From Deltaproteobacteria bacterium (GTDB lineage Bacteria > Desulfobacterota > Binatia > UBA9968), in assembly GCA_030688735.1 (NCBI GenBank), contig JAUYJC010000630.1, forward strand, positions 2,262-66,261: a stretch of DNA of 64,000 bases, given 5' to 3'. The translations under genes were made by a program, and so were the position numbers. Below the pieces are notes generated by a model. It was given only the letters and a program-made list of their open reading frames with translations. It was not told where the DNA came from and searched no databases. Below are positions 10,243 to 48,459 of this stretch, piece by piece; positions within the stretch are counted from its first letter, which is position 1; the number at the start of each line of letters is the position of its first letter.

Positions 10243-10303
10243 AATTTGGGCTGGTTACGGCTATACTCTGGGGGCAGCTCTCCGGGCAAGGCTAGAAGCC
10301 GCC

Positions 10304-10918: not shown

Positions 10919-10926
10919 GAGTCATC

Positions 10927-11406: not shown

Positions 11407-11409
11407 AAA

Positions 11410-12249: not shown

Positions 12250-12252
12250 AAA

Positions 12253-12603: not shown

Positions 12604-12607
12604 GCCC

Positions 12608-13189: not shown

Positions 13190-13191
13190 AG

Positions 13192-13734: not shown

Positions 13735-13740
13735 GATGCG

Positions 13741-13941
13741 ATGGGCATCCTCCAAGGCATTGCTGGGCTCTTCAATGTAGCGACCGGTAGAGACCCGGCG
13801 TCGCCGGCTTTGGTGCAGGAGCGTCTCATGATCTGCACTCGGTGCCCGTACCGTTCTAGGGTGCGATGCCACGAGTGTGGTTGTCTGATTCATGCCAAGG
13901 CGAGATTGAAATCCGAGCACTGCCCGAGAGGATATTGGTAA
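13741..13941 (+). CDS. small Cys-rich protein
   Basis: 66 aa; CTRCPY...CHECGC...HCPRGYW. Confidence 0.55.
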   Translation: MGILQGIAGLFNVATGRDPASPALVQERLMICTRCPYRSRVRCHECGCLIHAKARLKSEHCPRGYW

Positions 13942-17381: not shown

Positions 17382-17587
17382 ATCTTCGCCGGCAACAGAT
17401 CGAGCATCCGGGCAATGGCCGGTAAATGCCGTTTAGCTAGGTACGGGGTCCGACAGACCTTGCCGTCGCGCATAAACTCTTTCGCAAACATCACCGTGCG
17501 CTGGTTGCGAACCTTGTCGTCGGTGACGACGCAGATGACCTCACCCTCGCGGATGACCTCGCACTCAATGTAACGGTCGTCGCTCAC
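17378..17587 (-). CDS. small protein downstream of the integrase (excisionase-position gene, function unknown)
   Basis: GTG at 17587 overlaps the integrase stop (TAGTG); 69 aa. The listed ORF 17378..17716 extends back into the integrase. Confidence 0.45.
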   Translation of the reverse strand: MSDDRYIECEVIREGEVICVVTDDKVRNQRTVMFAKEFMRDGKVCRTPYLAKRHLPAIARMLDLLPAKI

Positions 17588-26111: not shown

Positions 26112-28069
26112 CCGTCATCGCCTGGGACATTGAGACGCATCCGATTGTGGACGGCTGCAACACGCCGAAGCTGGTCTGCATCTCTTCCTGCGACGGCGAG
26201 AACGCCGATCTTTTTCTCGCCACCGAAGGGCTCGTGAAGCTTCGCGAGTGGCTACTCGATCCGACGATCATTCTTGTAGGTCACAATCTGCCCTACGATC
26301 TTTGCGTCGCTTGCGTCGAAGATCCAACGCTGTTGTCGTTGGTCTTCACTGCCATCGAGCAGAACCGAATACACGACAACCAGATTCGACAAGCGGTCAT
26401 CGCCAACTACGCCGGCAAGCTCAAGTTCGAGTGGGACGCCGACTCACACAAGTGGAACAAATCCAGATTCGATCAGGCCACGCTGGTAGCCGAGTACACC
26501 GGCCGCCGCCCGAAGAAGGGCGCCGACAGTGTGCAGCTCCGCTACGGGGAAGTGGATGGTCTCGCTATCGAACATTGGCCCGAAGAGTTCATTGACTACG
26601 CGGTCGGCGACTCCATCGACGCCTTCGACGTATGGCAGGCGCAGGAAGAGGGTCTCCCCGAGAGCGGGCTACCGCAAAACTGGCGACACATGGCTCATGC
26701 GTGGGCGTTGCAACTGGCCAGCACCCGCGGCTTCCGCACCGACCGGGGCAAGACCCTCGCGCTCGAAGCCGCGCTAGGTCACGAGATGGCGGCACACATC
26801 GAGGTCGTCAAGAGCTACGGCTTCATTCGCGAGAGCAGCACCAAGAATGAGAAGGCCACCCGCGCCGCAGTTGCGCGCCTGGTCAAGCAACCGATGCTCA
26901 CCCGGACCGGGCTTATCTCACTCAAGCGCGAGCAGCTTCAGGGCGTGCCGTGTCCTGAGTGTGGGCTCGATTTCGACGCACACAAGAAAGCCGACAGCGG
27001 GTGCATGGCGCAGGGCGAGCATATCGGCCTGTGGGCCTTCAGTGAGGTCAAGCGGGTCGAGAAGCAAATCTCAACCTACATCAAGGTACTCAAGCACGGC
27101 TTCGATCACCCGATCCAGTGTCACTACAACGTTATCATCGAGACCTACCGCACCTCTTGTGCGAGGCCGAACATTCAGAACTATCCACGCTCGGGGGGCA
27201 TCCGCGACTGCATCGTGCCTCGCGAGGGGTGGGTGTTCGCGTTTTGTGATCTCGATACCGTCGAGATGGGTACATTAGCACAGACGTGCATTGATCTATT
27301 CGGCTACTCAAAACTCGCAGACGCGATCAATGCTGGTCGCGATGTTCATATAGATTTTGCGTCTAAATTGTTGCAGATTCCCTATGACGAGTGTCTAAAG
27401 AGGTACGAAGAGGGTGACCCGGAGATCGAGCGCGCTAGACAGTATTGTAAGATCTGTAACTATGGCGCCGCGGGTGGCCTTGGACCCGATGCTTTTGTTG
27501 AATACGCAAAAAACGGTTATGGGATGGACATCACCCGGGAATTTGCTGTTCGACTGCTAACACAATTTAGGGATGCGTGGGAGCTGTATGATTACTTCAG
27601 CTATTGCGCTAACAGCATCGGTCCAGAAGGAGATTGTCGGTTTTTGCAGCATCCACGTTCCAAACTTGTTCGAGGACACGTTCGGTATACGTCGGTTTGC
27701 AACTATTTTTTCCAGCACCTCGCCGCGATGCTCGCGAAAGACTCGTTGTATTTCGTGACCAAAGAGTGCTACGCAGTTCCCGACTCGCCGCTCTATGGTT
27801 CGCGCCCGTGGCTCTTCGCGCATGACGAGATCGGCTTGGAAATCCCCGAGGCGTGGATCGGCACTGCTGCTTCGTCAGACGCCGCTCGGCGAATGCAGGA
27901 GATCATGGTCGCGTGTGCGAAGCACTGGTGCCCTGATGTGACCATCGGTGCCACTGTCGCGATGGCGCGGAGCTGGCTCAAGGGGGCGAAGCCTGTTAAC
28001 GACGAGCACGGGAACCTCGTGCCAGTAAAGAAAGCCAACAAGGAGTGGATTCATGACCGAGTGGCATGA
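26108..28069 (+). CDS. family A DNA polymerase with 3'-5' exonuclease domain
   Basis: Exo motifs WDIET, GHNLPYDL, YAVGDS. Pol motifs CDLDTVEM (A), RQYCKICNYGAAGG (B), AHDEIG (C), plus ARPNIQNYPR. Confidence 0.95.
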   Translation: MTVIAWDIETHPIVDGCNTPKLVCISSCDGENADLFLATEGLVKLREWLLDPTIILVGHNLPYDLCVACVEDPTLLSLVFTAIEQNRIHDNQIRQAVIANYAGKLKFEWDADSHKWNKSRFDQATLVAEYTGRRPKKGADSVQLRYGEVDGLAIEHWPEEFIDYAVGDSIDAFDVWQAQEEGLPESGLPQNWRHMAHAWALQLASTRGFRTDRGKTLALEAALGHEMAAHIEVVKSYGFIRESSTKNEKATRAAVARLVKQPMLTRTGLISLKREQLQGVPCPECGLDFDAHKKADSGCMAQGEHIGLWAFSEVKRVEKQISTYIKVLKHGFDHPIQCHYNVIIETYRTSCARPNIQNYPRSGGIRDCIVPREGWVFAFCDLDTVEMGTLAQTCIDLFGYSKLADAINAGRDVHIDFASKLLQIPYDECLKRYEEGDPEIERARQYCKICNYGAAGGLGPDAFVEYAKNGYGMDITREFAVRLLTQFRDAWELYDYFSYCANSIGPEGDCRFLQHPRSKLVRGHVRYTSVCNYFFQHLAAMLAKDSLYFVTKECYAVPDSPLYGSRPWLFAHDEIGLEIPEAWIGTAASSDAARRMQEIMVACAKHWCPDVTIGATVAMARSWLKGAKPVNDEHGNLVPVKKANKEWIHDRVA

Positions 28070-28637
28070 AAGATTTTGGGAGAAAGTAGATCAGTCTGGA
28101 GATTGTTGGGTCTGGACGGCTGCGACTGATAAGGACGGCTACGGTATATTTCAGCTCGAAGGCAAGGCACAGAAAGCCCACCGGGTTATTTTCCTAGTGT
28201 TGAATGGAAAGCTCCCTCCCAAGGAGAAGAAGTCATGTCATTCCTGCGACAACCCTCCGTGTGTGAACCCTGAGCATTTGTGGCTTGGCTCCACAAAAGA
28301 CAATATTCACGATGCATTGTCAAAAAGGAGATTGTTTCACCAAAAAGGGGATCATCCAAAGAAGCTAGCGGCTGCGATAGCTGCATACAAAGCAGGAAAA
28401 AATACAATTGGGGAAATTGTAGAAAGGTTTGGAGTGAGTTCCAGCACCTTAAATGTACACACGAAAGAAATACCTCGTCGGAGCCTAAAAGTAGTAATCA
28501 CAGACAAACAGGTACGTGAAATCCGTGCCGCAGCCACACGCGGGGAAGCACACAAAGTCATAGCGGATCGCTACGACATCTACATCAGCACAGTTGGCAA
28601 GATCTGCCGTCGTGAAGTTAGGAGTAATGTAAAATGA
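28053..28637 (+). CDS. HNH homing endonuclease with C-terminal HTH
   Basis: FWEKVDQSGDCWVW...DGYG...AHR...CHSCDNPPCVNPEHLWLGSTKDN. Overlaps the 3' end of the polymerase gene. Confidence 0.9.
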   Translation: MTEWHERFWEKVDQSGDCWVWTAATDKDGYGIFQLEGKAQKAHRVIFLVLNGKLPPKEKKSCHSCDNPPCVNPEHLWLGSTKDNIHDALSKRRLFHQKGDHPKKLAAAIAAYKAGKNTIGEIVERFGVSSSTLNVHTKEIPRRSLKVVITDKQVREIRAAATRGEAHKVIADRYDIYISTVGKICRREVRSNVK

Positions 28638-32843: not shown

Positions 32844-33238
32844 AAACAGGATTCCTATCTGCCGTCCCGTGTGATCACTGTGGGCAGCCGAACAACTTAT
32901 CAGCACAGCACGCCAATCTCGGTGGCAATCAGAGTTTCGCCTCGGGCATCACCACTGAGACGAAGTTTGAGTGTGATCATTGCGCTCGCCACAACGTCGT
33001 CACAGGCACTTTCAAGGACCCATATATCTGGGTTCAAATCGGACTCACGGTGGTATCAGGACCGGCGAGCAACGTGCCTTGTCCGCAGTGTGGGAACCAC
33101 GACAACTTCCAGGGCGTTCTATCGTTCATGCCGGTTGGTGATCTTAATGGTGCTGTGAACACCTGTGTTCATTGCGACGCTGAACAGAAAATTGTGGGTA
33201 TCAAAACAGAAATGAGGGTCCGAGTTGCTGCGCAATAA
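32840..33238 (+). CDS. tandem zinc-ribbon protein
   Basis: Four CxxC pairs (CDHCG, CDHCA, CPQCG, CVHCD). Confidence 0.6.
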   Translation: MKTGFLSAVPCDHCGQPNNLSAQHANLGGNQSFASGITTETKFECDHCARHNVVTGTFKDPYIWVQIGLTVVSGPASNVPCPQCGNHDNFQGVLSFMPVGDLNGAVNTCVHCDAEQKIVGIKTEMRVRVAAQ

Positions 33239-33536
33239 ATCCGATTCTGAAATCCGGGACTTCATCCTCGCCCGCGTTCTGGCCGCGCTGGTTCGCGTCG
33301 ACAACGCCACCGAGGCACTCAAGGCCATCACGCAAATGATTATCGAGCCCGAAGGAAAGGAAAAGGATGAAGAAATCTTGGAACTCCTCGAAATCATCGC
33401 CGATGACACGGGCGGCGCGGCTCGTAGCGTGGAAGCTATCCAAGCCGTTTTTGAAGAGGCGCCGTCGTTATCTCTGTTCGACGGTGAGCCCGACTTTGGA
33501 GATGATGACGAGAAAGCCGAAGAAGACGATGACTGA
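33225..33536 (+). CDS. acidic hypothetical protein
   Basis: 103 aa with a TTG start and an Asp/Glu-rich C-terminus. Confidence 0.45.
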   Translation: MLRNKSDSEIRDFILARVLAALVRVDNATEALKAITQMIIEPEGKEKDEEILELLEIIADDTGGAARSVEAIQAVFEEAPSLSLFDGEPDFGDDDEKAEEDDD

Positions 33537-34092
33537 GAGCTACTACGATAGCGTTTGGCCTGAAAATGCGAGGACCGAAGGCAGATATGTACTAGTTCGG
33601 AGTCATTATACTCCACTACTCTTTGAGTGGATCGCGCAAACAAAAGGCGATCTGCTCGGCGAGCCCGAGAAGATTTGGCTCTTCCTACTTGACGACCCGA
33701 CGTGGTTTCGTCGCCTCACGCCGGAATCGTGGCACAACCTCAATAGCCCTCAAGGGGGTATTCCTAAGAACGTGTGGGCAGGGGTAAAAATTGACAGTCC
33801 CGAGGACATCCAAAACATCCCGGAACTCCGACGCATCCGAGCCCGTCGACTTTTTCTGGAGTGCAACCTCGAAGAGAATGGATCAAATGAAGCACTATCC
33901 AAAGAGCTTAACGCCTGGCGGTGTAAGTCCTGCGGAATGCGCGGCGAAGAAAAACAGCGCGATTGCCCGAACATTCATCTCTGTGACCGTGACACGCTCT
34001 CGCCACAAATCGAGTGGATTGTGGGCAAGGCGGCACACACGATAGCTACTCCTTTGAGCATCATACTTTGGCCGGAGCGACCCAATGACTGA
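33529..34092 (+). CDS. hypothetical protein
   Basis: ATG 33529 inside listed ORF 33367..34092; product starts MTESYYDSVWPEN. Confidence 0.6.
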   Translation: MTESYYDSVWPENARTEGRYVLVRSHYTPLLFEWIAQTKGDLLGEPEKIWLFLLDDPTWFRRLTPESWHNLNSPQGGIPKNVWAGVKIDSPEDIQNIPELRRIRARRLFLECNLEENGSNEALSKELNAWRCKSCGMRGEEKQRDCPNIHLCDRDTLSPQIEWIVGKAAHTIATPLSIILWPERPND

Positions 34093-35725
34093 GACTGAGC
34101 GAGAAATCTGGTACGCCATTCCCACCTGCAACGTCCCACGGGCACAGGCCACGCTGAAGAAGTGGAAAGAGAAGGGCTACAAGACCATCGCACTATTGGA
34201 CGGCAAGGTCGAAGATCACGCAGCAGTCGGCGCCGACGTGGTGTTGTTTCGCGACAAGTACGAGGGCTATTACGTCTCTGCGCGGCTCATGGCGCAGAAG
34301 CTCAGAGAGAAGCTTGGCGACTACCCCGACATCATGGTCTGCGGCGGCGACGACATGGACCCCGATCCGAAACTCCACGCGCAAGCCATTGCGGCTCAGT
34401 GCTACGAGAAGTTCCCTGACGGCTACTTTGTCATGCAGCCCATCGGCGACGACCTGCAAGGCACTGACAAGATCTGCGGCTCGCCATGGTTCGGTAAGGA
34501 GTGGCTCAAGAGGTCCTACAACGGCAACGGCCCCTTCTGCGGGCAATACTTCCAATTCTACGGTGATGAAGAACTCAGGTACGTCGCCGACATACGCAAG
34601 GTGCTCTGGCAGCGACCTGATCTCGCGCAGCGTCATCACCACTGGCTTCGCCCCGGCATCAAGAAAGAGAAGTACCAGTCGGTGAACGAGGTGAAGTATT
34701 GGGAAAAGGACAAGGCCACGTTCGCCGGACGCCAGACAAAAGGCTTCCCCGGATCATATCGGCAGTGTACGTTCCCTGCCGGCGCTAAGGTTGTGGTGAC
34801 CGGCGCTGGTGGCTTTATTGGTCACCACCTATCAAATCGACTCGTCGCCGAAGGCGCCGATGTTTTCAGTATTGACCGCAAGCACCCCGAGTGGGGCGAT
34901 CACCCTTCGCGGGATTTCATGCTTGTCGATTTGCGTTGCATCGAAGATTTCCTCAGTGGTCAAGACTTTGTTTTCCATCTCGCTGCGGAAATGGGTGGTA
35001 TCGGCTACATCGAGAACAACAAGGGAGACATCGTATCGAGTTCAACTCGCATAGATCTGAACGTCCTTGATGCCTCCTATCGGAGCAAGGTCGGTCGATT
35101 CCTCTATACGTCCTCAGCGTGTGTCTATCCAGGCTACCGTCAGAACGATCTCAATAACCCCGGGCTCAGAGAGTCGGACGCCTACCCCGCCGACGCGGAA
35201 GACGGCTACGGCTGGCAGAAGCTCTACACCGAGCGCCTGTGTCGCCACTACCGCAAGGACTTCGGCCTCGATACTCGCATCGCGCGGCTGCACAACATCT
35301 TCGGTCCGCTGGGGACCTACGATGGCGGCCGAGAGAAGGCGCCGGCTGCCATGTGTCGTAAGATCGCCATGGCCAAGGACGGGGACCCTATCGAGGTCTG
35401 GGGCGATGGCAAACAGACACGATCCTACTGCTACGTCGACGATTGCGTTGAGGGTCTGATTCGCCTCATGCTCTTCGACTACAACAAGCCCATCAACATC
35501 GGCACCGATGAAATGGTGTCGGTCAACAAGCTCATCGAGCACGTCGAGGCCGTGTCCGGTAAAAAGGTCAAGCGGGTCTACGACCAGACCAAGCCTAAGG
35601 GCGTTCGTGGGCGCAACGCCAACCTTGATCTTGTCAAAGTTGTCCTCGACTGGTCGCCGACGCGCACCCTCAAAGAAGGGCTGGCAGAGACCTACCCTTG
35701 GATTGCAGAGCAGGTACAGAAGTGA
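34085..35725 (+). CDS. fusion protein: unknown N-terminal domain + GDP-mannose-3,5-epimerase-like SDR domain
   Basis: From ~aa 235: VVVTGAGGFIGHH (Rossmann), SSACVYP, YGWQKLYTE (YxxxK), REKAPAAMCRKIA, WGDGKQTRSYCYVDDCVEG. This closely resembles GME-type epimerases. Confidence 0.8.
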   Translation: MTETEREIWYAIPTCNVPRAQATLKKWKEKGYKTIALLDGKVEDHAAVGADVVLFRDKYEGYYVSARLMAQKLREKLGDYPDIMVCGGDDMDPDPKLHAQAIAAQCYEKFPDGYFVMQPIGDDLQGTDKICGSPWFGKEWLKRSYNGNGPFCGQYFQFYGDEELRYVADIRKVLWQRPDLAQRHHHWLRPGIKKEKYQSVNEVKYWEKDKATFAGRQTKGFPGSYRQCTFPAGAKVVVTGAGGFIGHHLSNRLVAEGADVFSIDRKHPEWGDHPSRDFMLVDLRCIEDFLSGQDFVFHLAAEMGGIGYIENNKGDIVSSSTRIDLNVLDASYRSKVGRFLYTSSACVYPGYRQNDLNNPGLRESDAYPADAEDGYGWQKLYTERLCRHYRKDFGLDTRIARLHNIFGPLGTYDGGREKAPAAMCRKIAMAKDGDPIEVWGDGKQTRSYCYVDDCVEGLIRLMLFDYNKPINIGTDEMVSVNKLIEHVEAVSGKKVKRVYDQTKPKGVRGRNANLDLVKVVLDWSPTRTLKEGLAETYPWIAEQVQK

Positions 35726-36075
35726 GTTATTCCCAGGGACGTGAAGAAGAGATCCTCATCACTCAGGTGCAGCGTCTCGGCATCAAGAAAGGCAACTTTC
35801 TCGACATAGGCGCCTACACAGGCATCAAGTTCTCCAACAGCCGGCACTTGCTTGAGAATGGTTGGAGTGGCACCTTGATCGAGCCCTCGCCCTCGGTGTT
35901 TCCAAAGCTCAAAGAGCTGTACAAGGATCGAAAAGACGTTCTGACAATCAACGCCGCGCTCGTCGTGAGCCTGCCACCCATCAACTCCAACCATCCGCCC
36001 GGACATATCAAATTTTGGGACGCGAGCGGCAACGCTTCAGGCTCAAGTACGTGTGGCATGATGGCAACAACATGA
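35722..36075 (+). CDS. FkbM-like SAM methyltransferase, short or truncated
   Basis: SQGREEEIL...GNFLDIGAYTG...SNSRHLLENGWSGTLIEPSP matches only the N-terminal half of this family. 117 aa, GTGA-overlapped start. Confidence 0.5.
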   Translation: MSYSQGREEEILITQVQRLGIKKGNFLDIGAYTGIKFSNSRHLLENGWSGTLIEPSPSVFPKLKELYKDRKDVLTINAALVVSLPPINSNHPPGHIKFWDASGNASGSSTCGMMATT

Positions 36076-36085
36076 TCTGGGCAAA

Positions 36086-36808
36086 ATGAATAGACCACTT
36101 GTCAGAATGCTATGGTGCCTGTCACCGAACTTCGGCGACGAGCTTGCACCGTATCTCGCGAGGCGAGCCGGCAAAGAGCCCGCCTATACCCTATCTCCGG
36201 GACGCTACGTGCTCTCGGGTTCGATGCTCAATAACTGCACCAAGAACGACACAGCATGGGGGTGTGGAATCGCTCATGAGCAACACCGGGTACCGGCAGG
36301 TATCACAATTCTGAGCGTTCGAGGGCCGAAGTCACTATATCGAGCCCGTGAGCACAACAATAATGTGCCTGAAGTCATCGCGGATTCTGGGTTCATTCTA
36401 CCACGCATCTATACAAACTCTCTTCAGGGCGAAAACCTGGAAGGTGAAGTCATCGTCCCTCATTACGTTGACTTTGAGAAGCTCACAGCCGCAAACCCAA
36501 ATAAACACGTCGTCAACATTCTTGATCCCGTTGAGAAGGTACTCGATCAAATTCTAGCGGCTGAGATCATCAGGTCGAGTTCACTTCACGGGCTCGTCGT
36601 TGCCGCGGCCTATGGTCGTAAGTTTCAGTGGATTCCGAGCGCGTTGGTCAATGGTGTTGAGTACAAATATGACGACTTCTACCAATCAATGGGGCTCAAG
36701 CTCTCTGAAGACGTTGTGTCATGTCCAGAGTCTAAACAGCTTGACCTGATTCAAATCGCATCACAAACGTTCCCATTTCCTGAAATCTTCAAGTCAAAGG
36801 CAGTATGA
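36086..36808 (+). CDS. polysaccharide pyruvyl transferase-like protein
   Basis: SPNFGDELAPYL near the N-terminus and RSSSLHGLVVAAAYG near the C-terminus, as in the PS_pyruv_trans family. Confidence 0.5.
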   Translation: MNRPLVRMLWCLSPNFGDELAPYLARRAGKEPAYTLSPGRYVLSGSMLNNCTKNDTAWGCGIAHEQHRVPAGITILSVRGPKSLYRAREHNNNVPEVIADSGFILPRIYTNSLQGENLEGEVIVPHYVDFEKLTAANPNKHVVNILDPVEKVLDQILAAEIIRSSSLHGLVVAAAYGRKFQWIPSALVNGVEYKYDDFYQSMGLKLSEDVVSCPESKQLDLIQIASQTFPFPEIFKSKAV

Positions 36809-37644
36809 GCAACATCGTCGCCATGATCATGGCTCGCAATGAAGAATGGATTCTCGAAGCGAGCATCAAAGCCGCTCGCAAGCTCTGTGACAAGATTGTC
36901 GTCTTCGATCACGCGAGCACCGACCGAACCCGAGAAATTGCTCTGAGCTGCGCCGATGGCGTTGACGGTACGACGGACCCTGTTTGGCGAGAGATGGACT
37001 ACCGGCAACAGATGTTTGAACTCACGGCTGGGCTCAAACCTACTCATCTTGCTTTCATCGACGCTGACGAGATTGTCACCAACAACTGTGTCGCTTCCTA
37101 TCGCAAAGCCATTGAGAACCTCACCCCTGGGCAGGTCGCCATTGCGCCCATGGTACCAGTATGGCGAACCCTCGACCAGTACCGCAAAGATGCCTCGGTC
37201 TGGTCAACAGCTGGCATCTCCCTCGCGGTCGGTTACAAGGCGGATCTGAACTGGAAGCCACGAGCGCATGACGGCTATCAGCATCACGCCAGAGAGCCCA
37301 AAGGCATGACCGAACGTGTGCCCATCGGGCAGCGGTACCAGGGTGGCGTGATGCACTTGCAGTTCGCCTGTCACCGTCGCCTGAAGGCCAAACATACTTT
37401 CTACAAGATGATGGAGCGCATTACTACACACAAGCCTAGCGACATCATCGAACGCCAATACAACCAAGCGATGGACGAGACAGGTATCAACTACGAGCCC
37501 TTACCAAAGTCCTGGTGGGACCCCGAGGTCAAAGCACTTATCGATCTGGATCACGTCCCGTGGCATGAGAAACAGTGCCAAGAATATTTAGATAAGTACG
37601 GGCGAAAATACTTCGGTGGCCTAAACCTTTTTGGTGTTGTATGA
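36805..37644 (+). CDS. family 2 glycosyltransferase
   Basis: IVAMIMARNEE...IVVFDHASTDRT...FIDADE (DxD). Confidence 0.7.
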   Translation: MSNIVAMIMARNEEWILEASIKAARKLCDKIVVFDHASTDRTREIALSCADGVDGTTDPVWREMDYRQQMFELTAGLKPTHLAFIDADEIVTNNCVASYRKAIENLTPGQVAIAPMVPVWRTLDQYRKDASVWSTAGISLAVGYKADLNWKPRAHDGYQHHAREPKGMTERVPIGQRYQGGVMHLQFACHRRLKAKHTFYKMMERITTHKPSDIIERQYNQAMDETGINYEPLPKSWWDPEVKALIDLDHVPWHEKQCQEYLDKYGRKYFGGLNLFGVV

Positions 37645-38099
37645 ATAAGCGCAGACCGTGGCATCTTAGATTCTGGGAAAAAGTTGATCAGAGTGGTGAC
37701 TGCTGGATATGGACAGCCAGCACCAAAAATGGGTACGGGCAGTTTCAACTAAACAGGGATATTTTGTATGCTCATCGTCTTTCGTGGGAGCTTGTAAATG
37801 GCACCGTCCCATTAGGTAAATTCATCTGTCACACCTGCGATGAAAGAAGGTGTGTGAACCCGAGTCATCTATGGGCCGGCACGCACTTGGACAATCAACG
37901 TGACTGCTGGCGTAAAGAACGTTCGCACTTCCAAAAAGCAGGTAACCCGAATCAGAAATTATCTGATCAACAAGTGCGTGAGATTCACCAACTACTCAAC
38001 ACAGTAAAGATTACCCGCGAAATCGCATTTCAATATGGTGTGACAACATCACAAATCAGGCACATCGCCACGGGTTTCTCGCGTTCGGGGGTCGTGTGA
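37641..38099 (+). CDS. HNH homing endonuclease (paralogue of 28053)
   Basis: FWEKVDQSGDCWIW...NGYG...AHR...CHTCDERRCVNPSHLWAGTHLDN. Confidence 0.9.
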   Translation: MNKRRPWHLRFWEKVDQSGDCWIWTASTKNGYGQFQLNRDILYAHRLSWELVNGTVPLGKFICHTCDERRCVNPSHLWAGTHLDNQRDCWRKERSHFQKAGNPNQKLSDQQVREIHQLLNTVKITREIAFQYGVTTSQIRHIATGFSRSGVV

Positions 38100-38395
38100 A
38101 GAAGATACGTGAGGTCTCCGATTACTTTGTTGGACACAAAGCTGTCATAGAAGAGGTCTGTGACGAGTGCGCCGGCACCGGGCACGTACACACCGGCTCC
38201 TTGGGCGGCGGCACGGAAGGAATAACCTGTTGCTGGGAATGCAACGGCTCCGGGCAGCTCGCTGAGCCTCGGCCTTACCACGCCATCCCCCACGGGGATC
38301 ACTGCCCGTCATCATGCGAGCACATTGATCCGCCAATTACCATGTACCAGTTTGCTAACCTCATCACTCGCGACGTGCCGCCGCGGCATGAGTGA
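38096..38395 (+). CDS. DnaJ-type CxxCxGxG zinc-finger protein
   Basis: CDECAGTG and CWECNGSG repeats. 99 aa, GTGA-overlapped start. Confidence 0.6.
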   Translation: MKKIREVSDYFVGHKAVIEEVCDECAGTGHVHTGSLGGGTEGITCCWECNGSGQLAEPRPYHAIPHGDHCPSSCEHIDPPITMYQFANLITRDVPPRHE

Positions 38396-38427
38396 CTCTG
38401 GTTGTGGATCAAAAAGAGGTTCAAGAA

Positions 38428-39096
38428 ATGACCCAACTCATTCTCGTCGTCGGCAACGGTCGTAGTGGCACCAACTTGCTCGGCAAGCTCATTGCCTCAC
38501 ACCCGGGTGTAGAAGGCTACATAGAGGAAGAGCCTATCTTTGGTCTTGTTACCAAAGCAGCCCTCTACAACGACGGGGACGCGCTCTACGCGGCGCGAGA
38601 GTGGTATGAGAGCAAACTCAAAGCCTGCACCAAGCCCTATTTGCTCGATAAGTCACACATGAATCTGTGGCTGGTCGAGAGGTGGCTGCGTGTGTTCCCG
38701 AACGTGAAAATCATTGGCATCCGTCGTGATGCGTACAACACGATCCTGAGTGCCCGTGAGCACATGGGAGTGCAGAGCCACTACCTGCGACTTGATCTCG
38801 TTGGCAAAGACTGTCGCGCCCTCGGGCTCAAAGCTAAAGACTGGTCACGATCACTCACAGCCAAACTCTTGCTGCGCTGGCAAGCACACGAGGATGAGTT
38901 TCGCCGGCTGTCGTGGATACCCACGATTGAGTACCGAAACCTTGTTCGTGATCCTGGTAACGCATTGGAGAAACTCGGGCTTGGCAATCTCCCAAAGGGT
39001 ATTGACTGCTCTATCATCAAACCCCCGACCAAGCGGCCGTTTGATAAAGCACTCATCGACGAGATCATCTTTTACGCTTCTCAGCATGAAGACTGA
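38428..39096 (+). CDS. sulfotransferase
   Basis: VVGNGRSGTNLLGKL (5'-PSB loop) and IGIRRDAYNTILS (3'-PB motif). ATG 38428 with AGAGG upstream, inside listed ORF 38392..39096. Confidence 0.7.
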   Translation: MTQLILVVGNGRSGTNLLGKLIASHPGVEGYIEEEPIFGLVTKAALYNDGDALYAAREWYESKLKACTKPYLLDKSHMNLWLVERWLRVFPNVKIIGIRRDAYNTILSAREHMGVQSHYLRLDLVGKDCRALGLKAKDWSRSLTAKLLLRWQAHEDEFRRLSWIPTIEYRNLVRDPGNALEKLGLGNLPKGIDCSIIKPPTKRPFDKALIDEIIFYASQHED

Positions 39097-39173
39097 AATA
39101 CTCAGTCGTAAAATCTATATTTGAGCACGCATCCCTAATTACTCAATAATATCAATAGTTTAAGTATATTGAT

Positions 39174-39202
39174 TTGACTTTGTTGGTCGAGTGTAGTTAG
39201 GT
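39174..39202 (+). promoter_or_regulatory. candidate sigma70-like promoter in an AT-rich gap
   Basis: TTGACT, 17 nt, TTAGGT. This would place the transcript start at about the ATG at 39209 (a leaderless message). Weak -10. Confidence 0.3.
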
Positions 39203-39208
39203 GGCTGC

Positions 39209-39547
39209 ATGGGTGGCCCAAAACAGAGGAAAAAAGCGCCAAAACAGCTTGAAATCTCCGAAAGAGGGGTCAAGCGCCGCCGCGAGCTGGGGATCGACGC
39301 TCTCCTATCCGCGGCGGCCCGGAGCGACCTAGCACGAAAAAAGGCCGAATTGGGTACCCAAACAGAACCCGCAAAATCCACCTCTCAGCGTCACAGTCAA
39401 GAGGATGCGCGGGCTCCGCTGTGCGCGTGCGGACACTCGATGAAGTATTGGGGTCAGAGCGTACTCAGTCCGCTGTGGCAACTCTACGCCTATCGCTGCT
39501 TGTGTGGCAGCGTTGCGAATCTCAAAAGGGAGCGAGTAGCGGAATGA
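39209..39547 (+). CDS. basic protein with C-terminal zinc-ribbon-like motif
   Basis: 112 aa; KQRKKAPK...KRRRE N-terminus; CACGH...CLCGS. Confidence 0.6.
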   Translation: MGGPKQRKKAPKQLEISERGVKRRRELGIDALLSAAARSDLARKKAELGTQTEPAKSTSQRHSQEDARAPLCACGHSMKYWGQSVLSPLWQLYAYRCLCGSVANLKRERVAE

Positions 39548-39618
39548 GCGAACGGCTTTGCCTCGCGATCGGCGAGCCGGTGTGGTGTCACGATCGCAAA
39601 AACCGAAGGAAGAAAAAC

Positions 39619-39903
39619 ATGAGCAACACAAAGAAGAAAGCCACGGGCAGCACAAGCAAGAAGAAAGTCCAGCGTGGCGCCGCAAATCTCATCGGAAAAC
39701 AGGTCATGGTGTGGTGTGGGATCTACATCTATACCGGGGTCTTGGTCAGTGTGACCCCCGACGAACTCGTGCTCGACAATGCGTCGGTGGTCTACGAGAC
39801 GGGGCCACTGTGTGGCCCACCACAGACGGCCCAGAAGTTGCCAGCGCAGCTGTCGATCCGGCTCTCTGCGATCGAGTGCTATTACAAAGCACCACTATCG
39901 TGA
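39619..39903 (+). CDS. hypothetical protein (alternative start 39544)
   Basis: 94 aa from ATG 39619 (AGGAAG upstream); Lys-rich N-terminus. Its TGA overlaps the GTG of the first repeat gene. Confidence 0.55.
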   Translation: MSNTKKKATGSTSKKKVQRGAANLIGKQVMVWCGIYIYTGVLVSVTPDELVLDNASVVYETGPLCGPPQTAQKLPAQLSIRLSAIECYYKAPLS

Positions 39904-40172
39904 ACATCCCAAACAAACGCGCTAGGTGGCGGTCCGGGTCCGGATCTAAGTCCTGGTCCTGGTCCCGAACCCAGACCCGGTCCGGGTCCCGGTCCGGGTC
40001 CTGGTCCAGGTCCTGGTCCGGGTCCGGATCTAAGTCCTGGTCCTGGTCCCGAACCCAGACCCGGTCCGGGTCCTGGTCCGGGTCCTGGTCCAGGTCCTGG
40101 TCCTGGTCCGGGTCCGGGTCCTGGTCCCGGTCCTGGTCCCGGTCCAGGTCCTGGTCCGGGTCTCAGTCCTAG
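39900..40172 (+). CDS. repeat protein 1: VNIPNKRARWR-(S-G/W/R)n, coding frame uncertain
   Basis: GTGA overlap with the upstream stop. Low-complexity Ser/Gly/Trp/Arg product. Confidence 0.35.
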   Translation: MNIPNKRARWRSGSGSKSWSWSRTQTRSGSRSGSWSRSWSGSGSKSWSWSRTQTRSGSWSGSWSRSWSWSGSGSWSRSWSRSRSWSGSQS

Positions 40173-40198
40173 TTCCAGTCCAAATCCAAGGTGTCGCC

Positions 40199-40411
40199 AT
40201 GAGTACCCCGAACAAACGCATTAGGTGGCGGTCCCGGTCCGGGTCTCAGTCCGGGTCCCGGTCCGGGTCCCGGTCCTGGTCCCGGTCCGGGGCCGGGGGC
40301 GGGGCCGGGTTCTGGTCCGGGTCCTGGTCCGGGTCCTGGTTCTGGTCCGGGTTCTGGTCCGGGTTCGGGTCTCAGTCCGGGCCCCGGTCTTTGAGGGTGT
40401 TGCTGCCATGA
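40199..40411 (+). CDS. repeat protein 2: MSTPNKRIRWR-(S-G/W/R)n, coding frame uncertain
   Basis: ATG start; the stop overlaps the next ATG (ATGA). Confidence 0.35.
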   Translation: MSTPNKRIRWRSRSGSQSGSRSGSRSWSRSGAGGGAGFWSGSWSGSWFWSGFWSGFGSQSGPRSLRVLLP

Positions 40412-40617
40412 GCACTCCCAACAAACGCGCTAAGTGGCGAACCCGGTCCGGGTCCGGGTCCTGGTCCTGGTCCCGGTCCGGGTCTCAGTCCGGGTCCCAG
40501 TCTCGGTCCTGGTCTCGGTCCTGGTCCCAGTCCTGGTCCGGGTCCGGGTTCTGGTCCCGGTCCCGGTCCCGGTCCGGGTACGGGTCCTGGTCTGAATCCA
40601 AGGTGTCGCTGCCGTGA
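40408..40617 (+). CDS. repeat protein 3: MSTPNKRAKWR-(S-G/W/R)n, coding frame uncertain
   Basis: ATGA-coupled start; the stop overlaps the next GTG. Confidence 0.35.
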   Translation: MSTPNKRAKWRTRSGSGSWSWSRSGSQSGSQSRSWSRSWSQSWSGSGFWSRSRSRSGYGSWSESKVSLP

Positions 40618-40820
40618 GTACCCCGAACAAACGCGCTAAGTGGCGGACCCGGTCCGGGTCCGGGTCCTGGTCCTGGTCCTGGTCCGGGTCTCAGTCCGGG
40701 TCCCGGTCCGGGTCCGGGTCCTGGTCCAGGTCCTGGTCCTGGTCCGGGTCCGGGTCCTGGTCCCGGTCCTGGTCCCGATCCTCCGGGTTTTCAGAGGTGT
40801 CGTGGTCATCACAGCACTAG
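40614..40820 (+). CDS. repeat protein 4: MSTPNKRAKWR-(S-G/W/R)n, coding frame uncertain
   Basis: GTGA-coupled start. Ends 22 nt before the TnpB-like gene. Confidence 0.35.
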   Translation: MSTPNKRAKWRTRSGSGSWSWSWSGSQSGSRSGSGSWSRSWSWSGSGSWSRSWSRSSGFSEVSWSSQH

Positions 40821-40842: not shown

Positions 40843-41665
40843 ATGAGCAAAATTCTAGTTTACAAATTCGGAGCCCGCTATCCATCCGCAGAGTCTCGCG
40901 CGCTGTTGCTCGCACAAATGCGGATGGGGCATGAGTATTACAACCACCTCGTCGAAATGGAAAACGCTCGACGTAAGGCGGCGCAACGCTCGTGCAGATC
41001 GTATTCGTAGCACCCGCGACGTGATGCGCAACGAGCTGCTTGAGTGGCTCGGCGCCGATGAGAGTGAGTCTTCAAATCTCGTGCGTGATCGGGCGGGACG
41101 ACTCGCCATTTTCCGCGGTTTGCTGCGCGTGGTAGGAATCGATACCGACCAGGCGACAATTGATCGGCTGCAAGAGCACGTCCACCGAGATCGGCATCTG
41201 GCTCAGTACGAGAGCGGCAACCGCCGGCGCGCCGAGTTGCACAGGCGCAATGAGTTCCGCAAATTTGTTCGCGTGCTACGCCGGCGCTATCTCTGCGTCA
41301 TGATCAAGACGGACGCGATCAAGGAGATGAAGGAAAAAGGTGATCTCCCACAACCCGCGCGGAAACAGGGACAGATTGCGGCTCCGGGCGAGATGTTGGC
41401 AGAGCTACGCTCTGTCTTCCTCGACGGCGGCGCAATCATCGTCGTCGAGGGTGAGTACACGTCACGGGATTGCGTGAAGTTGGAGTGCGGGCATCGCAAC
41501 GAGGGCTACGCGGGTCCTGTGCTGATTTGCGAGCAGTGTGGTGACACGAGGGATCGGGATGAGGTATCTGTGGAGAATATGATGCGGCTGCTGGCGAGGG
41601 GGGGAGTACAAAATCAAGACCGCTCGCAAACGGGTGGCCAGGTTCGCGAAACGACACAAGAGTAG
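40843..41665 (+). CDS. hypercompact TnpB/Cas12-like (RuvC + zinc-ribbon) protein split over two frames (40843..41010 and 40931..41665)
   Basis: N-terminus MSKILVYKFGARYPSAESRALLLAQMRMGHEYYNHLVE. VVGIDTD (RuvC-I-like). C-terminus IIVVEGEYTSRDCVKLECGH...CEQCGDTRDRDEVSVENM (TNB finger + RuvC-III). A frame change is needed near 40975-41010. The CRISPR array follows immediately. Confidence 0.65.
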
Positions 41666-41673: not shown

Positions 41674-42064
41674 GTGACAATGCCAGCTCGATGGCTTAGA
41701 GATCGAGACATGCCGTCGAGCTTCGCGCCATCCACGCTGAGGTCGTGACAATGCCAGCTCGATGGCTTAGAGATCGAGACAGCTGCAAGGTGTCGACCGC
41801 TTTCCCGCACCCCCTGTGACAATGCCAGCTCGATGGTTTAGAGATCGAGACCACTGGAACAATCGCCGCCTGAGCGCGAGGGAGCTTGTGACAATACCAG
41901 CTTGATGGTTTAGAGATCGAGACTCGTCGGTACCGTTCACCGCCTCTACCACGACAGGTGACAATGCCAGCTCGATGGCTTCGTGATCGAGACCGAGAAG
42001 TCTAGGGATCTCGGGGTGAAGCAAGGGGTAGTAATGCCAGCTCGATGGCTTCGTGCACTTCCGT
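41674..42064 (+). CRISPR. CRISPR array: five 36-bp repeats plus a degenerate sixth (a seventh remnant at 42071-42106)
   Basis: GTGACAATGCCAGCTCGATGGCTTAGAGATCGAGAC at 41674, 41745, 41816, 41888, 41958. Unique spacers of 35, 35, 36, 34 and 35 bp. Repeats decay away from the TnpB-like gene. Confidence 0.85.
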
Positions 42065-45240: not shown

Positions 45241-45395
45241 AAGTCATCGAAGATGTTCGCGGCGAGACCATCAGCGTCGTCACAATTTCTAACACTATTC
45301 AGATCGGACTATACGATGAGTCTGTGGAGCTTGACGAAGACGGGGTTAACAACTTAATCACCGCGCTACAAACCGCGAAGGAAGAGCTAGAATGA
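45237..45395 (+). CDS. small hypothetical protein (52 aa)
   Basis: ATGA overlaps at both ends. Under 60 aa, so not in the ORF track. Confidence 0.45.
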   Translation: MKVIEDVRGETISVVTISNTIQIGLYDESVELDEDGVNNLITALQTAKEELE

Positions 45396-46516
45396 GAGTC
45401 AACTACCACTGCCATTTCGGCCAGCCCACCGGCTACGCCCGAGCTGCTCACGACAACATCATGGCGTTGCTCTCAGTCGGCGTGAGCGTGAAGATCTGGC
45501 CGTTCGATTCATATGCTTGCATCGACGGGCTTGAGTCACGCTACATGAAGTTGACCAACTACCTCGCCGCCGATGACGATGATCCCTTCAAAGATGAAGG
45601 CGTTCACGTCTATCACGAGACCCCGGGGAGGCTCAAAGAGCTGTTGGACATCGACGCGCTCCCCGGGCCAGCAGTCGCTTTCACGACTTGGGAGACTTCC
45701 CAGCTGCCAGAGGAGTTTGTCGACGCTCTTTTGTCGTTCGAGAGTGTCATCGTACCTTCGGTCTTTTGTCAACATGCCTTGTCGAAAAGCGGTGTGAAGT
45801 CTGAAGTGGTTCCGCACACCCTCGATTTCGACTTCTGGGAGCCCTCAGACAAGCCCAAGGCGTCGCCGTTCACCTTCTACACCATCGGCGCCTGGAACGA
45901 GCGCAAGAACGTCGGGGCGCTGCTCAAGGCGTACCTGGCCGCGTTCCGCCGGGACGATGAGGTCAAGCTCGTCATCCACTCGATCGATCCCGACATCTTC
46001 GAGACCAAACGCATCCTCAGCCAGAGCGGCATCCCGGAAGGTCAATTGCCGCGACTCTTGATCACAGATCACTTCCTCTCCGAAGCCGCACTTTTGTCTA
46101 TCCACCAGGAATCACACTGTTTCGTGTCGATGACCCGGTGCGAGGGGTGGGGGCTCGGCGCCTTCGAGGCGCTGGCCTGCGGCAACCCCGTGCTCATGCC
46201 GGGCTACGGCGGACAGTGGGACTTTCTGCCGACGCAGAGTCACAAGGTGCAGTACACGACGACGCCTTGTTTCCCTTCTGATCGCATCGTCATCCGCGAT
46301 GACGTGGTCACGGGCATCCGCAACGTACCCAAGGGCGTCGCGTGCGATCAAGACTGGGCCGAGCCCAGCATCCACGACATGAAAGTGCTCATGCGGCGAG
46401 TGTTCACTAGCCGGGGAGAGGATATTCTTCCTATCCGAAAGAAGCTCGGCTCTCTCTACAACTACAACAAAGTCGGTGAGCGGCTCGCTTCGGTCCTCGC
46501 CTACACGGGGAAATAG
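45392..46516 (+). CDS. GT-B glycosyltransferase (GT1/GT4-like)
   Basis: RCEGWGLGAFEALACGNPVLMPGYGG contains the E-x7-E motif. 374 aa. Confidence 0.8.
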   Translation: MRVNYHCHFGQPTGYARAAHDNIMALLSVGVSVKIWPFDSYACIDGLESRYMKLTNYLAADDDDPFKDEGVHVYHETPGRLKELLDIDALPGPAVAFTTWETSQLPEEFVDALLSFESVIVPSVFCQHALSKSGVKSEVVPHTLDFDFWEPSDKPKASPFTFYTIGAWNERKNVGALLKAYLAAFRRDDEVKLVIHSIDPDIFETKRILSQSGIPEGQLPRLLITDHFLSEAALLSIHQESHCFVSMTRCEGWGLGAFEALACGNPVLMPGYGGQWDFLPTQSHKVQYTTTPCFPSDRIVIRDDVVTGIRNVPKGVACDQDWAEPSIHDMKVLMRRVFTSRGEDILPIRKKLGSLYNYNKVGERLASVLAYTGK

Positions 46517-47640: not shown

Positions 47641-48459
47641 TTAGTTTTGTGTTTGCGGTAAGTAGCCGAACGCTTGGTTGAACGCGGCAAACCGCTGCAT
47701 GATCAGCCCACCGATATCTTGGGGGACATGATCCGACCAGAGACCTTCTGGCACTTTGACCGCGCCAGAGCCCTCGTGTGGGTATTTGCCGAGGTAGAGC
47801 GCGTCTGCGTCGGTCGCCGTGTTCTCGACGTGCGTGAAGTCATGCGCGAAACCGTCTTCACCAAGTACGGTGTAGATGGAGTCGAGCACGAGTTTCGGAT
47901 TTTTCACCAATGTCTCGAATTGGATCATATGGACGTAGGGTAGGTTGCGGCGCATTAGATCTTCGATACCGGCGACGTGCTGACCAACGAGCCCTTGCGG
48001 GGACAGCATTCGGTCGGCGCGGTTGTACGTGTGCAGCTCAAGAGGGCCACTAGCCTCGTCGAGCACGGGGTTTTTGGCGTGCTGCTTCTCGATGCTCGCC
48101 ATGACGGCGCGTAGATCGCGCACCATGACGAACATGTGCGACTCGGGGAAGATCTGGTGCAGGAGCAACGGGGAGTGATTCCAGTGTCGATCTTTGTCGA
48201 AAATCACTTCCCCGTTGCCTGCGTACCAGGCTTCGATCATGGCGCGAATACCGCCTACCATCTTGGTGGTCGTGACTTCTGCGTCGTGTAGCAACTGACT
48301 CTTGATCTCTGGGGAATGACTCCAGAGATTGCTGAGTGCCCGAGCCGACGACGCCACGCAGCTTGTCGAGCTAGCGTGGAATCGTGGGTTCTGATTCAAG
48401 ATGTTGCAGAGTAGTGTCGATCCACTCCGTGGTGTACCGCAGATTGTGTTGAATTTCAT
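47641..48459 (-). CDS. sulfotransferase (second copy, divergent)
   Basis: CGTPRSGSTLLCNIL (5'-PSB) and VMVRDLRAVMAS (3'-PB). Confidence 0.75.
   Translation of the reverse strand: MKFNTICGTPRSGSTLLCNILNQNPRFHASSTSCVASSARALSNLWSHSPEIKSQLLHDAEVTTTKMVGGIRAMIEAWYAGNGEVIFDKDRHWNHSPLLLHQIFPESHMFVMVRDLRAVMASIEKQHAKNPVLDEASGPLELHTYNRADRMLSPQGLVGQHVAGIEDLMRRNLPYVHMIQFETLVKNPKLVLDSIYTVLGEDGFAHDFTHVENTATDADALYLGKYPHEGSGAVKVPEGLWSDHVPQDIGGLIMQRFAAFNQAFGYLPQTQN

Follow-up and report, generated by a model that had tools for sequence, protein, structure and literature searches.

Virus-encoded glycans have been described on several types of particles. According to PMC9614988, the fibril gene clusters of Megavirinae yield an anionic, pyruvylated and partly methylated glycan carried by the virion fibrils. 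Among phages, the only experimentally shown virion glycosylation found in the literature covered is that of mycobacteriophages, in which it shields the particles from antibodies (PMC12619734, PMC11256854). Another type of phage pathway acts on DNA: the activity of phage GT-A glycosyltransferases (GTs) on 5-hydroxymethylcytosine depends on a neighbouring sugar epimerase, and such GT-A genes are often found near DNA polymerase, methyltransferase, helicase and terminase genes, together with secondary GTs (Pyle et al., bioRxiv 10.1101/2023.12.21.572611). The gene cluster analyzed here is located in a 64,000-nucleotide stretch of contig JAUYJC010000630.1 (assembly GCA_030688735.1), called the window below, which is attributed to a phage. 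It encodes a GT-A domain fused to a GDP-mannose 3,5-epimerase (GME), two further GTs, a pyruvyl-transferase-like protein and two sulfotransferases. Its best explanation, held at a little short of even chances, is a cytoplasmic glycosylation cassette whose likeliest target is the phage's own virion proteins. The novelty resides in the joint presence of these genes in one phage, in the GT-A::GME fusion, and in an undescribed virus-associated GT-A family that has a constant GT2 partner and often lies within head-assembly operons; taken singly, glycan clusters of viruses, sulfotransferases of phages and GME were already known.

A sequence-only reading of the window had proposed a phage-encoded glycan-tailoring set on the basis of seven gene calls. 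All seven genes are present at the positions it gave, profile searches uphold the epimerase and both sulfotransferases, and the set as a whole is supported by profile, structural and comparative evidence. Absent from that reading were the GT-A domain at the N-terminus of the epimerase protein, the HNH gene and Cys-rich open reading frame (ORF) lying inside the cluster, and DNA glycosylation as a possible role. The features of the cluster are the following:

34085-34756, plus strand: GT-A domain of the fusion protein (residues 1-224), assigned from an AlphaFold2 (AF2) model and Foldseek; the DxD motif is D89-D90, and H184 and H186 are invariant
34781-35725, plus strand: GME domain of the fusion protein, matching PDB 2c59
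35722-36075 (alternative start 35698), plus strand: truncated FkbM-type methyltransferase, by homology to the FkbM of the related phage L005
36086-36808, plus strand: pyruvyl-transferase-like protein (PvT), 240 amino acids, PF04230
36805-37644, plus strand: GT2-type (GT-A) glycosyltransferase, 279 amino acids, PF13704
37641-38099, plus strand: HNH homing-type endonuclease, PF13392 (45.6 bits) and phrog_1872 (E 3e-30)
38096-38395, plus strand: Cys-rich, zinc-ribbon-like ORF of 99 amino acids, translationally coupled to the genes on either side, with weak matches to anti-termination-Q-like PHROGs only
38428-39096 (GTG alternative 38392), plus strand: sulfotransferase ST1, 222 amino acids from the ATG, Sulfotransfer_3
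45392-46516, plus strand: GT4-type (GT-B) glycosyltransferase, PF00534, PF20706 and phrog_2170
47641-48459, minus strand: sulfotransferase ST2, 272 amino acids, Sulfotransfer_3, Sulfotransfer_1 and phrog_27463

The fusion product, encoded by positions 34085-35725, is 546 amino acids long. The GME-type call made earlier for this gene is borne out by its C-terminal part: residues 233-546 match the Arabidopsis GME (AtGME, PDB 2c59) with an E-value of 1.2e-96 and 49.8% identity over 311 aligned columns, and the Pfam Epimerase profile scores 155 bits on the protein. The Gly-rich NAD-binding motif TGAGGFIGHH occupies residues 239-248. S344, Y375 and K379 correspond to the AtGME triad S143, Y174 and K178 and are invariant in five fusion proteins. 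The Cys-Lys acid/base pair is kept as C346 and K418 (the latter within GGREKAPAA), equivalent to AtGME C145 and K217, while R510 (within GVRGRN), N404 and R446 are the counterparts of R306, N203 and R243. GMER enzymes, as compared to GM35E (extended SDR, CEP1), possess a His in place of the acid/base Lys and a Lys in place of the Cys-acidifying Arg (PMC8787198). The triad, the acid/base pair and this Arg, which distinguish GM35E from GalE and GDP-fucose synthase, are thus complete in the window protein, and none of them varies among the five fusion proteins. The assignment of the C-terminal domain as a predicted GDP-mannose 3,5-epimerase, with all catalytic and substrate-binding residues, is supported.

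The N-terminal domain (residues 1-224) yields no sequence match in Pfam, NCBIfam, PHROG or the PDB. It displays the strongly conserved motifs GGDDMxPDP, ICGSPW, GDEEL and HxH, and its AlphaFold (AF2) model, built from 50 homologues, reaches a predicted local distance difference test (pLDDT) value of 95. All 87 Foldseek matches listed from the PDB at E≤1e-3 possess the GT-A fold, whether as glycosyltransferases or as nucleotidyltransferases, and B4GalT1, POMGNT1, SunS, the ABO transferases, KdsB and PBCV-1 A64R are among them. Since the DxD motif and the downstream His are invariant, the best reading of this predicted structure is a metal-dependent GT-A glycosyltransferase belonging to an undescribed virus-associated family. 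The same two-domain GT-A::GME architecture is found in four further proteins, with 51-61% identity, which argues that the fusion is real. The record of the source contig lists a protein of 310 amino acids, P0003, which comprises the epimerase part only, while two other assemblies call the 546-residue fusion; given the four homologues, an annotation error probably accounts for the shorter call. Most simply, the fusion protein would both make GDP-L-galactose and transfer it. To note, a radical S-adenosylmethionine gene lies directly 3' of a GT-A::GME fusion in locus L009 (3492-4121), and a QueD/PTPS gene (20401-20693) occurs in L019, a locus with the GT-A family.

This GT-A family comprises 321 clusters at E≤1e-30 in an exhaustive profile search and is encoded on 136 IMG/VR viral contigs. 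The domain usually stands alone (~220-260 residues); besides GME, it is found fused to GT2, GT4 or Glyco_trans_1_2 domains. The 50,697 deposited phage genomes, those of mycobacteriophages among them, contain no match to it, and neither the family nor the GT-A/GT2 pair occurs in 72,556 plasmids. In a collection of 185,579 species genomes, a pattern-limited scan based on a 16-sequence alignment returned only two short contigs from metagenome-assembled genomes (MAGs) of the Planctomycetota phylum, one from Phycisphaerales and one unclassified; they provide a weak hint of a host in this phylum. In 61 of the 80 IMG/VR loci with the GT-A family, the gene for the GT2 partner follows on the same strand, and the partner was found in every longer metagenome locus examined. 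FkbM homologues accompany the family in 41 of these 80 loci and pyruvyl-transferase-like genes in 10. In L005, the order is GT-A::GME, a full-length FkbM, PvT and GT2, without a sulfotransferase. The phage represented by loci L005-L008 is the only other one to share more of the window genes (DNA polymerase, 57%; Dam, 61%); the GT-A/GT2 pair is therefore regarded as a mobile cassette, common to uncultured phages that are otherwise unrelated. As far as sequence comparison goes, the core of the system is this conserved pair and not the tailoring enzymes; the window's lineage has built on it with the epimerase fusion, the sulfotransferases and the GT4.

The GT2 partner scores 35.1 bits with PF13704 (Glyco_tranf_2_4; cut-off 27.5) and 24.6 with PF00535 (cut-off 23.3), and its D40 and D86-A-D88-E89 are invariant in nine homologues. 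Its sole significant solved relative (E 1.8e-6) is GmaR, the flagellin O-GlcNAc transferase of Listeria (PMC3150276). The GT-B enzyme at 45392 scores marginally with PF00534 (27.2 versus 26.4 bits), and also exceeds the cut-off of PF20706 (26.6 versus 26); its match to phrog_2170 has an E-value of 3e-19. The GT2, GT-B and both sulfotransferase calls of the sequence-only reading all pass Pfam cut-offs. The proposed pyruvyl transferase also does so, marginally: PvT reaches 28.7 bits with PF04230 (cut-off 25.3), matching positions 119-273 of the 280 of the profile, that is, its C-terminal half, and has no NCBIfam or PHROG match. The call is backed by homologues in L005 (41% identity) and L020 (37%), both adjacent to the GT-A family, the latter with a recorded PF04230 match.

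The methyltransferase ORF had been described as a fragment, and is one. It stays under the cut-offs of PF05050 (16.8 versus 22.7 bits) and TIGR01444 (19.8 versus 37.7), and aligns with the first ~104-114 residues only of the 199-residue FkbM of L005 (45% identity, E 4e-28), as well as with the N-terminal ~80-110 residues of the 195-residue FkbM of L009. Two metagenome assemblies made independently give the same 117-residue call. Restoration of the gene by a frameshift was considered and rejected: the other frame bears no similarity to FkbM. The gene is probably an inactive remnant retaining the N-terminal S-adenosylmethionine-binding half only. Because of this truncation, methylation, which had been proposed as part of the decoration, is unlikely, and the window phage would probably not methylate its glycan.

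PvT, GT2, the HNH gene and the Cys-rich ORF lie on one strand with successive 4-nucleotide start/stop overlaps (ATGA at PvT/GT2) and are therefore considered to form one operon. The latter two separate GT2 from ST1. The HNH gene has the lowest GC content of the region (0.47 versus 0.57) and is missing at the same position in L005. The segment formed by the HNH gene, the Cys-rich ORF and ST1 may be a mobile insertion.

Sulfotransferases dependent on 3'-phosphoadenosine 5'-phosphosulfate (PAPS) are characterized by a 5'-phosphosulfate-binding loop, x-R/K-S-G-S/T-T/S, and a 3'-phosphate-binding motif, R-x7-S. Direct reading of ST1 identifies the PAPS-binding motifs GRSGTNLL and RRDAYNTILS, and the protein scores 60.1 bits with Sulfotransfer_3 (cut-off 27). 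Its start is probably the ATG at 38428, which is the start on record. ST1 has no relatives in INPHARED, IMG/VR or the PDB and stands alone among 5.8 billion clusters; its single-sequence AlphaFold model (pLDDT 43) is too poor for fold assignment. ST2 scores 49.2 bits with Sulfotransfer_3 (cut-off 27) and 31.1 with Sulfotransfer_1 (cut-off 22), and matches phrog_27463 at E 5e-22. Its motifs PRSGSTLL and VRDLRAVMAS align with the corresponding segments of tyrosylprotein sulfotransferase 2 (TPST2); TPST1/2 are its solved relatives, with an E-value of 2e-8 confined to the PAPS-binding part. A weak NCBIfam match links ST2 to NoeE, the Nod-factor sulfotransferase, and it is 24-30% identical to proteins of Synechococcus phages S-SKS1 and S-SCSM1 and of marine single-cell viruses. 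In S-SCSM1, the matching sulfotransferase is also annotated beside an endonuclease. That sulfotransferases are uncommon in phages, as had been remarked, agrees with the counts: ST2 matches 8 of the 50,697 phage records and ST1 none.

Sulfotransferases are missing from the closest relative, L005, and from ~90 other loci with the GT-A/GT2 pair, and a motif scan of 96 related loci gave no convincing case. The exception is P0292: in this protein an intact sulfotransferase domain is joined to the GT-A domain, and the GT2 partner and a GT4 are encoded next to it, downstream. By this distribution, sulfotransferases are rare, lineage-specific additions. On the basis of the P0292 fusion and of the fusions to GT domains, it is argued that, where present, they would work in the same glycan pathway as the GT-A family.

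ST2 is located near the 3' end of a minus-strand block that holds fibre-like genes:

49351-51036, minus strand: fibre/receptor-binding-like ORF of 561 amino acids, from direct sequence reading
51087-53015, minus strand: fibre/receptor-binding-like ORF of 642 amino acids, from direct sequence reading
53019-56066, minus strand: fibre/receptor-binding-like ORF of 1015 amino acids, from direct sequence reading

The 561- and 642-residue products share the N-terminus MTSI(V/A)RRGG(V/I)DQ and diverge afterwards, an arrangement typical of alternative receptor-binding proteins. Those of 561 and 1015 residues are rich in Gly, Ala, Ser and Thr, with recurrent G-x-F/H-A-x-G motifs reminiscent of adhesin-like β-roll repeats. 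The three products have no match in Pfam, PHROGs, the PDB or INPHARED. The proposed proximity of ST2 to fibre genes is hence plausible as regards the shared, co-oriented block and the fibre-like sequences, but no profile confirms that these genes encode fibres.

Downstream of ST1, a GGTCCN hexanucleotide array (39931-40782) extends over ~850 bp with ~138 copies and 81 GGWCC sites. It is organized in four ~200-bp units, each with a conserved leader, and all six frames are open. If ATG and GTG are both taken as starts, the plus strand holds four small ORFs of the type M-STPNKRxxWR-(Ser-X)n that overlap as ATGA/GTGA. A further frame, present on either strand but lacking a start codon, encodes (Gly-Pro)n, and in it the variable base falls at the wobble position. 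One Logan contig stops precisely where the array begins, and the array is missing from the related phage. It was tried as a lead to related contigs, and rejected: at least 120 such stretches occur in IMG/VR, and none of the contigs carrying them is related.

A different role for the two sulfotransferases, quite unlikely in our view, would be the sulfation of proteins or peptides, for instance on Tyr or hydroxylated side chains in fibre or repeat proteins, with no involvement of the glycosyltransferases. The restriction of ST2's solved relatives to TPST1/2 and its position near the end of the fibre-like block would suit such a role, as would the succession of ST1, a 112-residue ORF and the 850-bp array with its Ser-dipeptide-repeat ORFs or Gly-Pro frames. 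Moreover, Gly-rich collagen-like proteins and the tail-collar proteins of phages have been predicted as substrates of bacterial sulfotransferases (Iyer et al. 2010, PMC2938197), and nearly all other cassettes lack a sulfotransferase. However, the similarity to TPST is limited to the PAPS-binding region, the catalytic Glu pair of TPST being replaced by Ser-Thr in ST2; the fusion of the GT-A family to a sulfotransferase within the GT cluster of P0292 points to a sugar acceptor; no hydroxylase is present; and arrays of GGTCCN, of which viral contigs commonly carry examples (at least 120 stretches), have an ambiguous coding frame here.

Returning to virion glycosylation, the following mechanism can be proposed. 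As suggested by the fusion and the fold, the GT-A domain would transfer the GME-derived sugar to an acceptor. The GT2 partner and the GT4 would extend the glycan by further sugars, PvT would add a pyruvate ketal, and ST1 and ST2 would add sulfate, using host phosphoenolpyruvate and PAPS. The outcome would be an anionic glycan with L-galactose, pyruvate and sulfate. Three GT domains or genes and the GME are virus-encoded, and the transferases look soluble and come with their own sugar supply. The cluster enzymes have no predicted membrane segment (Kyte-Doolittle 19-residue mean below 1.6 throughout), and no flippase (Wzx), polymerase (Wzy), priming GT or Gtr-type gene was found among the window ORFs scanned. 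Since the enzymes look soluble and the membrane components were not found, action on a cytoplasmic acceptor fits.

The gene order around the pair in other phages points to the particle itself. Same-strand neighbours within 6 kb were clustered for 79 non-redundant loci, and the ten commonest families were annotated: the commonest neighbours are FkbM-like, nucleotide-sugar-transferase and MptE-like (DUF115) proteins, the HK97-type major capsid protein, the portal and the prohead protease. The GT-A/GT2 cassette is located inside a head-morphogenesis module in 33 of 89 loci, in two fixed arrangements. The first (~20 loci) reads portal, prohead protease, HK97-type capsid, cassette; the second (~10 loci) reads terminase, Mu-type portal, cassette, MuF. 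In L019, the cassette is flanked by large tail-like ORFs and a portal. MptE-like (DUF115) proteins are recurrent in the Mu-type cassettes, and this domain is also found in flagellin glycosyltransferases. Virion proteins are favoured as the target because of the apparently soluble enzymes, the head-module gene order and the relationship to GmaR; the shared orientation of ST2 and the fibre-like genes points the same way. Precedents are the glycosylation clusters for giant-virus fibrils and viral capsids and the glycosylated virions of mycobacteriophages. Of the two roles put forward by the sequence-only reading, virion glycosylation is, from gene order, the more probable, ahead of host-surface remodelling.

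Some details of these loci may be added. In the Mu-like loci L014, L020, L142, L146, L147 and L150-L152, a ~9-kb glycan cluster separates the normally adjacent portal and MuF genes, in the order MptE-like, Nucleotid_trans, GT-A, sometimes PvT and FkbM, unknowns, GT2. In the HK97-type loci, the cassette comes after the capsid gene and is preceded by a 221-residue protein ("unk1") resembling another GT2-type enzyme. A protein encoded 3' of the cassette in the capsid-type loci ("unk6") was considered as a head-tail connector; a PDB search returned no match, and no claim is made.

Several observations weigh against glycosylation of the virion as outlined here. In the window phage and in L005, the main cluster follows replication genes (DNA polymerase, Dam) and not structural genes, and the structural genes of the window phage are not recognisable by searches. 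The 33 head-module cases probably go back to only two or three separate insertions, made in two lineages of phages, and in a genome of 40-60 kb, chance proximity of a gene to that of the capsid (6 kb or less) is no rarity. The GmaR match is limited to the generic N-terminal GT2 region. As for the enzymes, the scores of PvT and GT4 barely exceed the Pfam cut-offs, and the Foldseek TM-scores of the GT-A domain are modest (0.4-0.59), with same-fold nucleotidyltransferases among the matches; a sugar-nucleotidyltransferase role for this domain is the less likely alternative. Finally, a tyrosine-recombinase-like gene would fit a temperate phage and lysogenic conversion:

17587-18453, minus strand: probable tyrosine-recombinase-like ORF, ~16 kb from the glycan cluster

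Such a conversion belongs to an explanation that we regard as rather unlikely, the remodelling of host surface glycans. The soluble enzymes would decorate lipid-linked or nascent intermediates of lipopolysaccharide (LPS), capsule or exopolysaccharide at the cytoplasmic face with L-galactose, pyruvate and sulfate. The altered receptors would result in superinfection exclusion, would keep progeny from adsorbing to debris, or would amount to lysogenic conversion. Pyruvyl transferases, FkbM, GT2/GT4 and Sulfotransfer_3 proteins are indeed typical of bacterial polysaccharide clusters, the nearest GME homologues are bacterial, and ST2 has its weak match to NoeE. The recombinase-family gene and the location of the main cluster within an early/middle same-strand block, away from structural genes, are of the same tenor. 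Yet the scanned ORFs comprise no Gtr/Oac-type membrane enzyme and none of the flippase, polymerase and priming components, the enzymes themselves lack membrane segments, and the recombinase gene lies 16 kb from the cluster. The near-absence of the GT pair from the 185,579 species genomes of the pattern-limited scan and its absence from the 72,556 plasmids argue that it is unlike a borrowed host polysaccharide module, and its repeated location inside head-assembly operons is hard to account for by host remodelling.

DNA glycosylation had to be examined because published phage pathways pair a GT-A with an epimerase. Here, the GT-A domain and its fused epimerase, together with the second GT, would glycosylate a modified base and thereby evade restriction, which we consider highly unlikely. 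Besides the published pairing (bioRxiv 10.1101/2023.12.21.572611), the proximity of replication genes is in keeping with it: the fusion gene lies ~6 kb downstream of DNA polymerase A and ~4 kb downstream of the Dam methylase, and in L005 a C5-cytosine methylase is also located upstream. The Foldseek match lists overlap as well (KdsB, PBCV-1 A64R). Nevertheless, no thymidylate-synthase-type hydroxymethylase, TET/JBP-type or other 2-oxoglutarate oxygenase was found in the scanned window ORFs; no such base-hydroxymethylating enzyme was found among the unknown neighbours at E-values up to 10, nor in the Pfam lists of ten related loci or the ten commonest neighbour families of the 79 loci. The C5-methylase is present in L005 alone and not in the window. 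Pyruvyl transferases and sulfotransferases are without precedent on DNA in the literature covered. The published GT-As are ~272 residues long and their epimerases ~234-242, while a 224-residue GT-A is fused to a 314-residue GME here. The motifs GGDDMxPD, GDEEL and HxH, compared at motif level, have no obvious match to the JGT-like R...DDD...EDY/F. If DNA were nonetheless the acceptor, DNA glycosylation would be extended to new enzyme families.

The window is treated as part of an uncultured phage, possibly temperate; its structural hallmarks are not recognisable, and the assignment is made on indirect grounds. No terminase, portal or capsid was recognised among the window ORFs with Pfam, PHROGs, the PDB and tblastn on the large ORFs. 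The window encodes a family-A DNA polymerase, an exonuclease, a helicase, a DUF5906-type protein, the Dam methylase, several HNH endonucleases, SLT, M23 and M15 peptidases and the tyrosine-recombinase-family protein. Among deposited phage records, its DNA polymerase has distant relatives only (at most 27% identity), and positions 33000-40000 have no nucleotide match in the 50,697 records. The source contig measures 68,125 bp, and the identical sequence is present in two further metagenome runs. An SLT transglycosylase, an M23 peptidase, a RadC-like JAB protein and PcfJ-like proteins are encoded at 9770-16650, a set commoner in conjugative elements. Between positions 32500 and 49500, a scan for promoters and terminators did not exceed the number of sites obtained with shuffled sequence. 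Other features near the cluster are:

28053-28637: HNH endonuclease gene, a second example besides that at 37641-38099
33367-34092, plus strand: ORF of 241 amino acids (187 in Logan contigs) with a Cys-rich C-terminus, overlapping the start of the fusion gene
40931-41665: ORF of 244 amino acids with a Cas12f1/TnpB-like TNB zinc finger (26.6 bits), too short for a full TnpB

The ORF upstream of the fusion gene has a 37% identical homologue at the same position in L005, and its match to DUF5131 is weak (17.9 bits, under the cut-off). A DUF5131 protein is also encoded at 16122-16651 of L011, another locus with the GT-A family. The 244-residue TNB ORF has a 46% identical homologue in the related locus L006 and is directly followed by a 71-bp tandem repeat of 2.5 copies (41674-41851).

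Taken more broadly, the GT-A/GmaR-like GT2 pair might be a widespread, unrecognised virion glycosylation cassette, present on at least 136 IMG/VR contigs and extended here to a sulfated, pyruvylated L-galactose glycan; we propose this tentatively, as a possibility well below even chances. If true, the extended cassette would produce the first sulfated glycan on a phage virion, a bacterial-virus counterpart of the giant-virus fibril glycans. Should the pair glycosylate capsids, glycan-coated particles would be common among uncultured phages, with a bearing on adsorption, stickiness to mucus and exopolymers, colloidal stability and immune recognition. The contigs with the order portal, protease, capsid, cassette make the cassette a concrete test bed. 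What phage sulfotransferases do has been called unclear (PMC10580990), and the cluster would place them in a functional setting for the first time. For L-sugar glycoengineering, the epimerase fusion would be of interest as a compact protein that links GDP-L-galactose synthesis to transfer.

Serotype-converting phage modules (Gtr or O-acetyltransferase) are composed of membrane-embedded transferases beside an integrase and attachment site, whereas the enzymes of the window cluster have no membrane segments and the recombinase-like gene is ~16 kb away. The sulfotransferases of marine phages (Synechococcus phages S-SKS1, S-SCSM1 and S-SRM01, and relatives of OM43 phages) are Sulfotransfer_3 proteins like ST2, while ST1 is unrelated to them; in the records examined, they are isolated genes and not part of a cluster with GT, epimerase and pyruvyl transferase genes. 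In chlorovirus PBCV-1 (A064R, A111/114R), cytoplasmic, virus-encoded multidomain GT-A enzymes and a methyltransferase act on the major capsid protein, and the virus makes GDP-sugars of its own. A064R domain 1 (2p73) resembles the window GT-A domain in fold alone (TM ~0.45, 9% identity); PBCV-1 also differs in its sugars and in the domain of life of its host, and the PBCV-1 literature covered presents no sulfation or pyruvylation.

In mycobacteriophages, phage-encoded GTs glycosylate capsid and tail-tube subunits (Freeman et al. 2023, cited by PMC12619734 and PMC11256854); in the citing papers covered, no epimerase, pyruvyl transferase or sulfotransferase is mentioned. The subclass II pathways of Pyle et al. 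resemble the window in having a GT-A with an adjacent short-chain dehydrogenase/reductase epimerase for an unusual nucleotide sugar, secondary GTs, and replication and methylase genes nearby. However, they are defined by an adjacent C5-methyltransferase together with a 5mYOX/TET enzyme, or a thymidylate-synthase homologue, none of which was found in the window; conversely, pyruvyl transferases and sulfotransferases, both encoded in the window, are not mentioned for these pathways (bioRxiv 10.1101/2023.12.21.572611).

The Megavirinae fibril clusters (Mimivirus R135-L143; Moumouvirus australiensis; Cotonvirus) resemble the window in several respects: according to PMC9614988, they combine nucleotide-sugar synthesis with several soluble and often multidomain GTs, with methyltransferases and with a putative pyruvyl transferase. 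Genes of sulfate metabolism are present in some clades as well, but these are of the sulfate adenylyltransferase (SAT) and adenosine 5'-phosphosulfate (APS) kinase type, as opposed to the PAPS-type sulfotransferases of the window. Megavirinae differ further by their eukaryotic hosts, their sugars (rhamnose, Vio4NAc, QuiNAc) and their unrelated GT families, the window system being distinguished by its GME fusion and its location on a ~68-kb phage-like contig, and known from its genes alone. Finally, the plant GME, which serves ascorbate and cell-wall synthesis, and the GM35E of Methylacidiphilum fumariolicum are stand-alone enzymes (PMC8787198, PMC6678494), whereas the GME of the window is encoded by a phage and fused to a glycosyltransferase domain.

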